The notes beneath the pieces were generated by a model. It was not told the DNA's origin and made no database searches. It saw nothing but the letters and a program-made list of their open reading frames with translations. From positions 448,001 to 512,000 of the forward strand of contig CBDCCI010000001.1 in NCBI GenBank assembly GCA_965214705.1: DNA of 64,000 nucleotides, read 5' to 3'. The position numbers were made by a program, and so were the translations under genes. Of the stretch, positions 40,683-52,632 are shown one piece after another. How positions within the stretch are numbered: the first letter of the stretch is position 1; each line of letters starts with the position of its first letter. This DNA is from Alphaproteobacteria bacterium (GTDB lineage: Bacteria; Pseudomonadota; Alphaproteobacteria; UBA828).

Positions 40683-42929
40683 GACGATCTCCTGTTGGTT
40701 CAACCTCCGGGACCCTGTGCCCCGTGGTGATGTCCTTTGTGATTCACGCGCGCGCAGGGGCAGCACCTGGCCCTGGGAAGTCTTGGGCGGGAGTCGGTGC
40801 GGAAGTTCGGCGAGTTGGTGCGGAAGATGGCGCCGCCGTGCCGGTGGGAACGGTGTTCCGCAGCAAATCCATTCCAGTGGTCATTACGGCGCCGTGCCGG
40901 GCGGGCCCGCTTGGGCCTGCCCGGCGTCTAGGCGCCGCCTTGAATGGTTCCGCGAATGGATTTGAGGCGGTGCAGCGTGACGCGTCGGCCCCGCGCGAGG
41001 GGCCGGCGCGCTGCGAGACGCGGCAGTTGGCGATTACGCGCAAGCCATCTTCACGGTCGCCGAACTTCACGGCCCGCCTTAGACTTCCTTGGGTCAGGCC
41101 GCAGGGAGCGGAGCGACCGGAGGACCCGCAGGGTTGCTGTCGCGAGCACGTGTGAAATCCTCGGACATCACGACGGAGTGCGCTGTGAATACCAAGTAGG
41201 AGGAAAGCATGAAGTAAACCAAACACTTGGTAGTGCTGATGATCGACCGGTGGCTGAAACGCCACCCTGCCTGACGAGGGGTGTTGGGCGGAAGGGGATC
41301 GCTAAGCTCCGCCGGTTTCCGACGGTGGGGCGAAAGAGCTGCGATCTGAACTGTACCGGGTGCGGGCCGTCGCTCGCGGGCCGGGCTACCACAGGACCTA
41401 TGGCGAGGTTGAACGAAGCACGTGACGGAAGCCTCTTTATTTAGATGTCCAACCCTCAATGGCCCGACGGGGCGGAGGGAGCGCGGTGAGAGCCGGTTGG
41501 TCTTCCGTCTGCCGACTGGCGGGTGTGTTGAACGCACCCGGGTACGGGTCAACCCTTCTATCCCGAACCCCAGAGCTGCAAGGGGTATAGCGTGCCGCCT
41601 AAGGGTCTCAGGTTTGTCATCGGAACACAGGAACCCATGCTGTTCGCCCGGCACGGAACCGGGCTAGCCGCGGAGAACGGAGACGGGCCGCATGGGGGCG
41701 GAGCCCTCGTAGTAGTCGGAGTGCGGGAAAGCCGCATACATGGCGAAGGGGGGCAGAAGGTGGATCGGCTATCGACTGACGGAGGAACTATCCGTGGACT
41801 CGGATAATCAGGCCGACATGGCCTGGTGGCTCCTCAACGTGCAGCGGAAGTTGTATCGGTGGAGTAAGGAGACGCCTGAAGGCGCTTACGGCGATGTGTG
41901 GAACTGGGAGCCACTTGCAAAACTCCCACCGATCCGCGCAATCTTCGCTGTGCATGGCACTCGATTGCCCAGAACAAGGGCAGACGAACGCCGGGCGTCG
42001 ACGGGCTGACGGTGGCGAGCATTGCCGCTGGCGATGGAGGTGTACCGCTCTTTCTGGACGAGCTTCGGGAGGCGCTGCGCGATGGCAGCTACCGACCGTC
42101 GCCCGCCCGGCGGAAGTGGATTCCGAAGCCGGGCAAGCCGGGGAAGTTCCGACCCCTTGGTATCCCCACCGTTGCTGACCGCGTGGTGCAATGCGCGGTC
42201 AAGAACATCCTGGAGCCAATTTTCGAGGCGCGTTTCTGGCAGGTCTCCTACGGGTTCAGGCCCGGACGGGGCTGCCATGGCGCACTCGAACATATCCGGC
42301 TGACCACTCGGACTCACAAGTCGAGAACCGATGGGAAGCTTCGCGACCCTCCCTATCAATGGGTGATTGAAGGCGACATCGAGGGCTGCTTCGACAACAT
42401 CGGCCATCACTACCTGATGGAGCGCGTACGGAAATCCGTCGCGGACCGGAAGGTCAACAGGCTGATCGTGCGGTTCCTCAAAGCCGGGGTATTGGAGGAC
42501 GTCAACTACAATCCGACAACCACCGGCACGCCTCAAGGGGGTGTCCTGTCTCCCCTGCTGGCCAACATCGCGCTGAGCGCGATCGAGGAGCGGTACTGGT
42601 GGTGGGTGAGGCACCCGCATGATCCCAATATCCGGACTGACGGAAGGCGGATGGCCGCGACACGGCGATTTCGGGACAGGGAGGCCGGGCGAACGGTCTT
42701 GAACGAAGCCGCTACGCGGAGTTAGCGGCGTAGAGTTCATTCATTTCCGAGGCGTCGCGGGTGCCGTTTGTTCTGTGCGTTCGCTTCCCGGTTGCGTCAG
42801 TGGCGCTCCGCCCGTCGGGTGGCGGATCCCCAGCAGCCTCCCGATCACCAGTGGTTAGCATCGACCCCTGCGACGGACCGTCGCCGGATCGGTCCGGCGG
42901 CGCGCCGTCGCGATCCAGGGAGATCGATA

Positions 42930-43808
42930 ATGACCGGGACCGCGTGCGACACGAACACCGTCACCCCTCTTCGCCAGCGCATGGAGGAGCAGCTCCGCAT
43001 CGCCAATCTGGCCGCGAGCACGTCCAAGGCCTACATCTGCGAGATCAAGAACCTGGCCAGGTACTACGACGCCTCGCCGGACGAGCTCGACGCCGAGCAG
43101 GTGCGCCAGTGGTACCTGGGGCGGATCGACAAGGGGCTCAGTCCGGGCACGACCAACGTCTCCTTCGCCGCGCTGAACTTCCTCTACATCGACACACTCG
43201 GCTGGCCTGACCATGTCGCCGGCCTGCGCTCCCGCAAGAAGCCCGGCAAGCTGCCGCGCTACATGTCGGAGCAGGAGGTCGAGCACCTCATCCTTGCGAC
43301 ACCCGACCTCCGCCACCGTGCTGCCATTGTCACCGGCTATGGCGGCGGGCTCCGCATCTCCGAGACCTTGGCCATCAAGGTCGGCGACATCCTGTCGGAG
43401 AAGAAGCTGCTGCACATCCCCTCCGGCAAAGGCGGCACCGAGAGAATGGCACCGTTGCCGGACATCGTCATCCACTACTTGCGCGTCTACTACAGGAACA
43501 TCTGGCCGCGTCCGACGAGCTGGCTCTTCTACGGCGTCTCGCTCGACAGGCCCATCGCAACGGAGACCTTGCAGGCCGCCTTCAGGAGGGCGCGCGACAT
43601 TGCCGAGCTCGACCGCAGCTACACCTTCCATTGCCTGCGCCATTCGGCGGCGACCCATCTCCTCGAGCGCGGCGGCGATATCGAGGTGATCCGGGACATG
43701 CTCGGCCATCGAAGCGCGAACACGACCCGTCACTACGCCCGCGTCACCGGCAAGATGTTCGAGGGCCTCGACCACCCGATCTCAGGCTTCGCAGCGTTGC
43801 GCAACTGA
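42930..43808 (+). CDS. Tyrosine recombinase of element A (copies 47564..48442, 55715..56593, truncated 62345..63119)
   Basis: TPLRQRM, YGGGLRISE, GKGG, HCLRHS, LGH, TTRHY. Confidence 0.92.
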   Translation: MTGTACDTNTVTPLRQRMEEQLRIANLAASTSKAYICEIKNLARYYDASPDELDAEQVRQWYLGRIDKGLSPGTTNVSFAALNFLYIDTLGWPDHVAGLRSRKKPGKLPRYMSEQEVEHLILATPDLRHRAAIVTGYGGGLRISETLAIKVGDILSEKKLLHIPSGKGGTERMAPLPDIVIHYLRVYYRNIWPRPTSWLFYGVSLDRPIATETLQAAFRRARDIAELDRSYTFHCLRHSAATHLLERGGDIEVIRDMLGHRSANTTRHYARVTGKMFEGLDHPISGFAALRN

Positions 43809-43814
43809 CGGCGC

Positions 43815-51548: not shown

Positions 51549-51551
51549 CGG

Positions 51552-52406
51552 TCAGGCCTGGGCAGGACGCGGAAACTCCAGCAGGTCCAGGGGCGACGGC
51601 GTGGCGGACGTCTTGTCGTGAGCAAGGTGAAGGTAGCGCATGGTCGAGCGGATTGAGGTGTGCCCGAGGCGGCGTTGGATGACATGCAGCTCGACGCCGG
51701 CCTCGAGGAGCCCGGTGGCGTAGCAATGGCGCAGCGTGTGGATCCCGCCGGGCTTGGCGATCCCGGCTTTGTCCTTGGCTCGATCGTAAACGTGTGCTGG
51801 CCCATGGCGCGTCATCGGCCGGCCGGGAATCCGACCGGGGAACAGCCAGTGCTCGGGCCGTACCCGCTGCCAGTACTCGCGCAGCTCGTCGAGCAGCCGG
51901 GGCGAGAGCGGGACGTAGCGGTCCTTGTTGCCCTTGCCCTGATCGACGCGCAGGCACATCCGCTGTGAGTCGATATCGCTGATCTGCAACCGGCCGAGCT
52001 CGCTCGCCCGAAGCCCCGCTGCATAGGCCGTCATCAGCAAGGCGCGGTGCTTGCGGTTGATGGTGACGCTGAACAGCCGCACCAGTTCGTCTTGGTTGAG
52101 CAGTACGGGCAGGGTGGAAGGCGTCTTGGCGAAGGGCAGATAGAAGTGCGGCTCGGGCAAGCCCAGCGTGATGCGATAGAGGAAGCGGATCCCTTGGCGA
52201 GCGCTGTTGCAGCTCTGCCAAGCCAGCCCCCGCTCTTCGTGAAGAAAGATGAGGTACTCCTGGACTTCCTCCGCTGAGATGTGCTCGGGGCTGCGACCGT
52301 AGTGAACCGCGAGCCCGGAGACCGAGTTGAGGTAGGACTTCCTGGTGTTCTCGGCGAAGCCGCGAACCGTCATGTCGTTGATCATGCGCTGGCGAAGTGC
52401 CGTCAT
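51552..52406 (-). CDS. Tyrosine recombinase
   Basis: MTALRQRM, YAAGLRASE, GKGNKDR, HTLRH, LGH, TMRY. Confidence 0.93.
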   Translation of the reverse strand: MTALRQRMINDMTVRGFAENTRKSYLNSVSGLAVHYGRSPEHISAEEVQEYLIFLHEERGLAWQSCNSARQGIRFLYRITLGLPEPHFYLPFAKTPSTLPVLLNQDELVRLFSVTINRKHRALLMTAYAAGLRASELGRLQISDIDSQRMCLRVDQGKGNKDRYVPLSPRLLDELREYWQRVRPEHWLFPGRIPGRPMTRHGPAHVYDRAKDKAGIAKPGGIHTLRHCYATGLLEAGVELHVIQRRLGHTSIRSTMRYLHLAHDKTSATPSPLDLLEFPRPAQA

Positions 52407-52632
52407 GGGGCGTCTCCCTCTGGGTTTGGTCTGTCACGAAGACACGCCCATGCTCTTGCTCGCCGGCTTGGCGGTCGACGACCATCGATCAACGAGGGAG
52501 AAACAGGATTCGACCCTGCGCCCAGACGCTGGAGCGAACGGCCACACTCAACTTACGCGCGGCAAGGAGATCACTCTGGGCACCCGGCGGCCGAGGCGCC
52601 CCGCCGCGGAACGCGGCTCAGTTCAGGACGGA

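Follow-up and report, generated by a model that had tools for sequence, protein, structure and literature searches.

The stretch of DNA analysed here (the window: 64,000 nt of an alphaproteobacterial genome, contig CBDCCI010000001.1) contains three kinds of repeat unit, among them two elements, A and B, in each of which a tyrosine recombinase gene is followed by a gene encoding an IS91-type transposase. The ends of both elements are arranged such that, once joined, they form one long bulged palindrome: a 14-nt arm at the left terminus comes to lie opposite its inverse, which is situated directly before a long hairpin at the right end. This end structure is, with high confidence, real and functional. 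The assignment of the enzyme that uses the folded joint to either of the two encoded proteins can be made with moderate confidence at best. Genome-wide counts refer to the source genome, which was searched in the form of three contigs (C1, C2, and C3; 7.9 Mb).

Ends of elements A and B and their folded joint

The joint is built from the following features of element A (copy A1) and element B:

42699..45364, plus strand: element A, copy A1 (2666 bp; within repeated sequence, without target duplication)
42699..42712, plus strand: left arm of A1 (first 14 nt of the element, terIS side)
42708..42729, plus strand: small subterminal palindrome at the left end of A1 (CCGC, 3 nt, GCGG type; overlaps the arm; also present in homologs, 33 loci, by eye)
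45305..45318, plus strand: right arm of A1 (inverse of the left arm without mismatch, 46 nt from the right terminus)
45319..45360, plus strand: oriIS-side hairpin of A1 (19-bp stem; loop TCTC, the minority orientation)
45361..45364, plus strand: linker AACC of A1 (final 4 nt of A; forms the bulge once the joint is folded)
50017..52625, minus strand: element B (2609 bp; tail to tail with copy A2)
52612..52625, minus strand: left arm of B
50062..50076, minus strand: right arm of B
50024..50060, minus strand: hairpin of B (13-bp stem, 11-nt loop; preserved by compensatory changes in two relatives)
50017..50023, minus strand: 7-nt linker of B (CAATTCA on the element strand)

The left arm of A is the 14-mer TTGAACGAAGCCGC at 42699-42712, with its exact inverse at 45305-45318. 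This pair recurs in the other copies of the window, with 7 matches compared to 0.02 expected by chance. The 42-nt hairpin that directly follows the right arm of A1 has a perfect 19-bp stem and a 4-nt loop (z = -7.9 versus shuffles). Read outwards, the right (oriIS-side) end is composed of the inverse of the first 14 nt, the long hairpin, a linker of 4-7 nt, and the terminus. Classical terminal inverted repeats are ruled out for A, since the right copy is located 46 nt inside the end and even deeper in homologs.

For folding, the right end and the left end were concatenated in silico, and the right end together with its real flank served as control. The joint of A folds into 14-bp arms, a 4-nt bulge, and a 19-bp stem, with -43.7 kcal/mol for the top and -43.9 kcal/mol for the bottom strand, compared to only -29.4 and -30.3 kcal/mol for the control, i.e., the joint is better by about 14 kcal/mol. 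The terminal sequence, its inverse adjoining the hairpin on the inner side, the linker AACC, and the joined stem agree with the preliminary description of this region. The joint phosphodiester is positioned at the boundary between bulge and arm. The joint of B follows the same plan (-38.1 kcal/mol for the bottom and -36.0 kcal/mol for the top strand), as had been claimed, except that B starts at 52625 (TGAAC...) and not at 52626. This start was obtained by comparing 13 left ends, in which the base at 52626, outside B, is T in 10, C in 2, and A in 1 case. The only mismatch in the arms of B is a G.T wobble, which occurs on the bottom strand only. A and B had been regarded as quite different in sequence. 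This applies to the hairpins only, as the arms are homologous, with 11-12 of 14 positions identical and two compensatory pairs. A promoter formed at the joint was considered by eye only and rejected, as the distance between TTGAAC and a poor -10 is not kept in other clades.

Among the 92 intact hairpins in the genome, two are bordered by arm-like sequence on both sides, namely the joint of a tandem A-A copy (C2:646560-646680) and a 50-nt solo hairpin beside B (C1:3505988-3506037). The composite site had been supposed to exist only in the excised circle, but the tandem A-A copy carries the joint in the chromosome. Both hairpins read arm, GGTT, hairpin, AACC, arm, that is, 4 nt were gained opposite the bulge, resulting in a perfect palindrome, and both carry the minority loop, the solo hairpin being oriented as in two other A-B pairs. 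The extra 4 nt are found in none of the 90 ordinary copies, and the minority loop in 6 of them. Template-switch mutation within quasi-palindromes is well established, and a single switch of this kind would account for both the 4-nt gain and the loop flip. Judged by the two filled-in sites, the joint behaves as one palindrome in the cell.

The loop of the A hairpin is GAGA in 86 of 94 cases and its reverse complement TCTC in 8. In the window, A1 (45338-45341) and A2 (49972-49975) differ in this respect from A3 (58123-58126). Four of the five full-length copies with a flipped loop share the single-nucleotide polymorphism (SNP) 161T, so the flip may represent one lineage. In the public sequencing data used for comparison (four runs, all of them assembled contigs, which cannot show rare forms), loop differences at 45338-45341 carry no information, since the hairpin is identical to its reverse complement. 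The sole joint in these contigs, a 2666-nt skip, is explained by four identical host copies without A.

Conservation and coding capacity of related elements

A recombinase-based scan with one genome per species yielded 80 loci, which span Alphaproteobacteria, Betaproteobacteria, Acidobacteriota, Planctomycetota, Spirochaetia, Gemmatimonadales, and others. Except for four loci, an IS91-type transposase gene is located directly after the recombinase gene (76 of 80). The arm scan was anchored on the small left-end palindrome and comprised 68 loci, including A, B, and two relatives of A in the source genome (A', 80% identical). With the left arm motif and a partner 2380-2620 nt downstream as filter, the arm pair was recovered in 48 of the 68 loci, giving 35 distinct pairs; several of the 20 loci that failed are cut contigs. 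In all but three of these loci (45 of 48), the right arm is followed, at a distance of no more than a few nt, by a hairpin with at least 10 pairs. By eye, the hairpins of the homologs have a foot of the GGTT...AACC type, after which comes a linker of 4-7 nt.

Covariation across homologs carrying recombinase and IS91-type transposase had been proposed as a check of the layout, and the arms do covary. Watson-Crick pairs occupy 473 of 560 cells, compared to 386 +/- 9 with shuffled partners (maximum 417 in 2000 shuffles), and 198 of 245 at the variable outer positions, compared to 133 +/- 8; kinship inflates these statistics, but the double changes nevertheless fall between phyla. Two or three types of Watson-Crick pair each occur in arm columns 5, 11, 13, 14, and 16. 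The expectation that the layout is kept while the sequence changes is thereby borne out, and from this comparison the joint layout is judged not to be a product of chance. Among plasmid matches, the recombinase accompanies transposases with 38% or more identity to that of A and is absent beside those with 28% or less. Recombinase, transposase lineage, and end design travel together, so these data cannot separate them. No arms were found in two plasmid members with recombinase (L083 and L084). Both adjoin another insertion sequence upstream and may have lost their left ends, and both were left out of all counts.

The Xer/IntI-like recombinase gene precedes the transposase gene in A and in B, on the same strand and separated by a few bases:

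42930..43808, plus strand: tyrosine recombinase gene of A (Phage_integrase and SAM_4; catalytic R, K, H, R, H, and Y columns in common with B)
43815..45056, plus strand: IS91-type Y2 HUH transposase gene of A (Zn_Tnp_IS91 and Y2_Tnp)
51552..52406, minus strand: tyrosine recombinase gene of B (33% identical to the A recombinase)
50328..51548, minus strand: Y2 HUH transposase gene of B (41% identical to the A transposase)

In Pfam, the transposase of A matches PF04986 (E 2.7e-54) and PF14319 (E 4.3e-30), both of which also match B. The HUH histidines and both tyrosines are invariant in A, B, an IS91 copy, and an IS1294-like copy. All six catalytic columns of the recombinase are intact in A and B despite their low identity, and its closest solved structures are an archaeal XerC-like protein, XerD, and the integron integrase IntI4. 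A shares with the IS91 family a Y2 HUH transposase with zinc-binding N-terminus, the lack of a target duplication, unlike ends, and oriented insertion, the latter 5' of a short target similar to the ter end. A and B are members of the recombinase-carrying IS91 subgroup.

Copies and target sites

Element A occurs in about 94 copies in the genome, at 98-100% identity. Ninety exact left ends and 94 right ends were counted, TTGAAC is the start of A in 90 of 94 copies, and of 62 full-length copies 57 are exactly 2666 bp long. Insertion of A is precise and without target-site duplication, as seen from the occupied site in comparison to a diverged paralogous empty site inside the window and to four empty sites at 100% identity elsewhere in the genome. 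The ends of A are fixed by the end counts together with the window and genomic empty sites. In case of B, about 11 copies are present, with 13 left and 10 right ends.

No copy of A at 96% identity or more was found in 20 genomes of other species of the same genus, five of which contain relatives at 81-84% identity, mostly at contig ends. With about 94 near-identical copies in the source genome, this distribution clearly points to an active element, which makes A a practical experimental system. B was found in none of the 20 same-genus genomes and in one of 20 more distant genomes, that copy having other flanks.

Target preferences of A were derived from 73 non-redundant sites after removal of duplicate flanks, of eight copies abutting CGAACTTCC, and of the tandem copy. 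Across all copies, the right flank begins with T in 72, T in 83, and G in 48 of 94 (genome T content 17%). The preferences at single positions of the 73 sites are as follows:

Position -8: A in 35 of 73 (genome A content 17%)
Position -7: A in 34 of 73 (genome A content 17%)
Position -1: G in 2 of 73, almost avoided
Position +1: T in 62 of 73
Position +2: T in 70 of 73
Position +3: G in 38 of 73
Position +6: C in 54 of 73
Position +7: G in 44 of 73

A inserts 5' of TT(G), at the boundary between spacer and right arm of a target whose consensus is weakly two-fold symmetric (AA, 6 nt, TT). The matrix of the right half agrees best with that of the complemented left half at spacer 6 (r = 0.64; other spacers -0.30 to 0.43). 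At positions 1, 2, 3, 6, and 7 the right half of the target equals the first bases of the element itself. At positions +4 and +5, where the arm reads AA, no base is preferred, which is more easily reconciled with read-out by a protein than with base pairing. The bottom-strand cut follows ...CAA both in the target and at the left end of the element. This cut geometry is what a tyrosine recombinase acting on the right arm would produce, and a cut at the boundary between spacer and arm is also the layout of Xer core sites. A hairpin target was considered and rejected: the flank stem has a mean of 1.39 nt, compared to 1.52 nt with shuffled partners (p = 0.93), and no covariation of the flanks was observed, in a test that preserves column composition and is blind to the consensus AA...TT.

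Sites of B are few and have an Xer-core-like layout, and B has its own recombinase. The flanks read ACATAR, 7 nt, insertion, TTAYGT in 4 of 8 independent sites, and a right flank of the TTAYGT type adjoins 9 of 10 copies. Rare 20-nt palindromes (TTATGT, 8 nt, ACATAA types) occur nine times in the genome, eight of them beside B and one as an empty paralog at C1:4094758. Beside different B copies, the adjacent palindrome is found with its loop in either orientation (49999-50016, 52626-52720, and other sites).

A right end of A is located directly at the left end of B in three places (C1:1988903, C1:3505986, and C3:1787620), of which two involve a full A copy and one a solo hairpin remnant of 50 nt. 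The terminus of B mimics the TTG target of A. At C3:1784955 the exchange point is displaced by one base, with A starting CTGAAC and a T preceding B.

The remaining copies of A in the window and the sequence between A2 and B are:

47333..49998, plus strand: element A, copy A2 (arms at 47333-47346 and at 49939-49952; its tail faces that of B)
55484..58149, plus strand: element A, copy A3 (loop GAGA, the majority orientation)
60787..63119, minus strand: element A, copy A4 (first 335 nt missing)
49999..50016, no strand assigned: 18 nt between A2 and B (remnant of the short palindrome adjoining B in most B copies)

The host sequence interrupted by A1 (flanks 42600-42698 and 45365-45500) is itself repeated and contains an open reading frame (ORF) with a YADD-like motif (by eye), possibly that of a group II intron reverse transcriptase. 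Uninterrupted copies comprise four identical ones in the genome and one diverged at 11994-14129 of the window. Approximately 18 copies of A elsewhere are split exactly at position 1306 (44004 in A1) by an insert of mostly about 1.65 kb, which looks like another element aiming at one site inside A. Loose ends at 44004 were seen in two public sequencing runs. Eight copies of A share the right flank CGAACTTCC..., e.g., at C2:689571 and C3:1553280; either the right end of A adjoins another repeated element (CGAACTTCC), or that element inserts at the end of A. Many more repeats are present at 1-40000 of the window. The segments at 12-20 kb and 31-46 kb share large inverted duplications, and a tandem array is located near 20.6-21.5 kb.

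Proposed routes of insertion and comparison with known systems

Phage CTX offers a precedent for a folded joint: a rolling-circle enzyme makes a single-stranded DNA (ssDNA) circle, in which two sites in inverted orientation form a bulged hairpin resembling a duplex core site, one strand pair is exchanged, and replication finishes the insertion. For IS91, PMC13181058 describes ori and ter ends and circles with joined ends, of which the bottom-strand single-stranded circle is the functional intermediate and the sole form that inserts, as well as a target tetranucleotide adjoining ori that resembles the ter cleavage site. According to 10.1101/542381, IS91-borne recombinases are the closest relatives of IntI and are devoid of its extra helices, and PMC9345347 states that CTX and integron cassettes integrate by tyrosine recombinases plus replication. 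The folded single-stranded substrate suggested at the outset is in agreement with the first two of these sources, and an enzyme may use the fold.

In case of A and B, the HUH transposase would nick beside the hairpin and release a bottom-strand single-stranded circle, as described for IS91. At the joint of this circle, the left-end arm would reach the foot of the hairpin and generate a pseudo-duplex site consisting of arm duplex, bulged centre, and hairpin stem. This folded joint may undergo a second cut, after ...CAA on the bottom strand, and be linked to a double-stranded target, presumably a two-fold symmetric site resembling a recombinase core (AA, 6 nt, TT(G)) that is cut at the boundary between spacer and right arm. 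One strand exchange would take place, and replication would then complete the insertion. By analogy to CTX and integron cassettes, the recombinase would be the enzyme of the target joining and completion steps. That the joint is a folded recombination site, with an ssDNA circle made by the transposase and integrated by the recombinase as in CTX and integron cassettes, is the reading we tentatively favour, with a confidence somewhat short of even. A similar reserve applies to the recombinase as the enzyme that performs the strand exchange at the target, which it may well do. Furthermore, it is tempting to speculate, if only as a doubtful extension, that this widespread IS91 subgroup consists of two-enzyme ssDNA transposons in which the HUH transposase only copies out the circle and the element's own Xer/IntI-like recombinase integrates the folded joint at loose core-like double-stranded sites. 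Such an element would be a minimal autonomous counterpart of CTX integration and a plausible evolutionary source of the folded-strand habit of the integron integrase.

Several observations weigh against the folded recombination site. No circle joint was present among the contigs of the four public runs, which cannot reveal rare forms. Arms of the Rhodobacterales keep mismatches at positions 8-9, and the putative end of these elements is about 3 nt beyond the arm. Without the AA/TT positions, the symmetry of the A target drops to r = 0.38 at spacer 6, and the unrelated spacer 13 gives 0.51. In the folded joint of A, a motif that resembles the left arm of the target is separated from the right arm by 5 nt on the bottom strand or by 9 nt on the top strand, instead of 6 nt. 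The arms of B are unlike the arms of its target, and two relatives of B, one of them a 90% relative in the source genome, have other flanks. On C1, the top strand of 32 of 46 copies is on the lagging strand (all three contigs 56 of 94, p = 0.08, with the GC skew poorly defined on C2), a weak bias that would fit insertion by the transposase into single-stranded DNA at the replication fork. Finally, the resemblance of the target to ter is already known from recombinase-free IS91 (PMC13181058), so the TT(G) preference alone needs no recombinase.

A pathway that relies on the transposase only is a serious rival, which we consider quite possible, though clearly below even. Here, the right arm on the displaced bottom strand would pair with the ter end and thereby bring the ter cleavage site to the foot of the ori hairpin, loosely reminiscent of the IS200/IS605 guides, and one hairpin-bound HUH transposase would cut ori, ter, and target, the recombinase being an accessory or regulator in place of Orf121 of IS91, or a resolver of multimers. 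Covariation of the arms is accommodated by such pairing, as is the left arm beginning at the very first base in A and in Acidobacteria clades. In three clades the first 2-3 nt of the element are identical to the first 2-3 nt of the right flank: TTG in A (72, 83, and 48 of 94, see above), G/T followed by T in all 6 Bryobacterales copies, and GG in all 11 readable right flanks of the Rhodobacterales, provided that the end is set after TTCA. The weak strand bias on C1 points in the same direction, as do the bottom-strand-only wobble of B and the slightly better folding of the bottom-strand joint. In addition, the recombinase-free IS91 performs all steps by its transposase and follows the same target rule, as stated in PMC13181058. 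However, target positions +4 and +5 are neutral while +6 and +7 are preferred, unlike in contiguous guide pairing, and the AA at -8/-7, mirrored at spacer 6, has no role in this pathway. The catalytic residues of the recombinase, all kept at 33% identity, argue for catalysis rather than mere binding, and the canonical IS91 works without arms.

Three further explanations are less likely than both the folded recombination site and the transposase-only pathway. The arms might be inverted repeats that are read as duplex by one protein, either the recombinase or the zinc domain of the transposase, which brings the ends into synapsis without any folding. This would agree with an arm core of the ACTAAACCGC type that is nearly invariant across phyla, beyond the needs of pairing, and one protein reading both copies would also yield covariation. 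The two copies, however, are unequal, the left one being terminal and the right one located 46-110 nt inside and always just before the long hairpin; HUH transposases act on single strands, as is well established; and both genomic joints behaved as one palindrome. We regard this explanation as rather improbable.

Very improbable is an invertible switch, in which the recombinase would flip the segment between the arms, either the body or the hairpin, and thereby create two origin states. An invertible origin had been suggested, and the occurrence of the loop in two orientations (86 GAGA, 8 TCTC) speaks for such a switch, but all 62 full-length copies are collinear, and body and hairpin keep the same relative orientation in every copy. 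Four of the five flipped full-length copies share one SNP, maybe as one lineage, a 4-nt loop between 19-bp arms would be too short for recombinase synapsis, and template switching better explains the flips together with the 4-nt gain. Chance, or a functionless by-product of common descent of the ends, is hardly credible: owing to the homology of their arms, A, A', and B do not count as independent cases of the layout, but it persists across phyla, with compensatory changes, while protein identity has dropped to 33-45%.

IS91, IS801, and IS1294 resemble A and B in their Y2 HUH transposase with N-terminal zinc-binding domain. As in A, no target duplication is formed, the ends are unlike and contain subterminal palindromes, and the ori end is located downstream of tnpA; according to PMC13181058, insertion likewise occurs 5' of a short ter-like target at the ori end. 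Unlike A and B, the canonical IS91 family has no recombinase gene. The classical ends had been held to lack true terminal inverted repeats, and no arm pair was found in the IS91 copy examined: its best inverted repeat is 8 nt long and not terminal, and it has no long perfect ori hairpin, while its ends match the published ter and target tetranucleotides. An IS1294-like copy on a Shigella plasmid (L082:1085-1094 and 2730-2739) has a 10-nt subterminal inverted repeat of borderline significance, with one copy just inside the ter palindrome and the other 10-19 nt from the ori end, which is either a shorter counterpart of the arms or due to chance. The IS91 and IS1294-like transposases are only 23-26% identical to that of A.

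ISfinder lists IS91-family members with an upstream gene named 'phage integrase'. The integron-like recombinase subgroup of 10.1101/542381 has the same two-gene layout as A and B. Full-text literature searches, which did not cover ISfinder, returned no description of the ends, arm pair, folded joint, or targets of the recombinase-carrying IS91 subgroup. The two-gene subgroup as such is known. Elements of the IS91 type mobilise neighbouring genes by a mechanism that is only partly known, and no description of the role of the recombinase carried by some of them was found in the literature searched; a conserved recombinase-type joint would provide it with a testable job.

IS200/IS605 elements (e.g., IS608) are single-strand HUH transposons as well, in which subterminal hairpins and short guides set cleavage sites and target. 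They differ by a Y1 transposase, 4-nt guide pairing, and the absence of a recombinase, compared to only Y2_Tnp in Pfam and 14-nt arms in case of A and B. Phage CTX depends on XerCD of the host and a single chromosomal dif site, whereas A has its own recombinase, at least 73 different sites, and a length of 2.7 kb without phage genes. Integron cassettes share with the predicted joint fold of A a single-stranded imperfect palindrome with unpaired central bases and a related recombinase, as well as the lack of a duplication and a very short target motif. In contrast to integrons, A has neither an attI platform nor a cassette array, and while cassettes carry no enzyme genes, the recombinase gene of A is situated inside a dispersed 2.7-kb unit of about 94 copies. 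If the favoured reading is true, A and B would represent a third natural case of tyrosine recombination on folded ssDNA, beside integron cassettes and phage CTX, and would link the integron integrase to a transposon ancestor.

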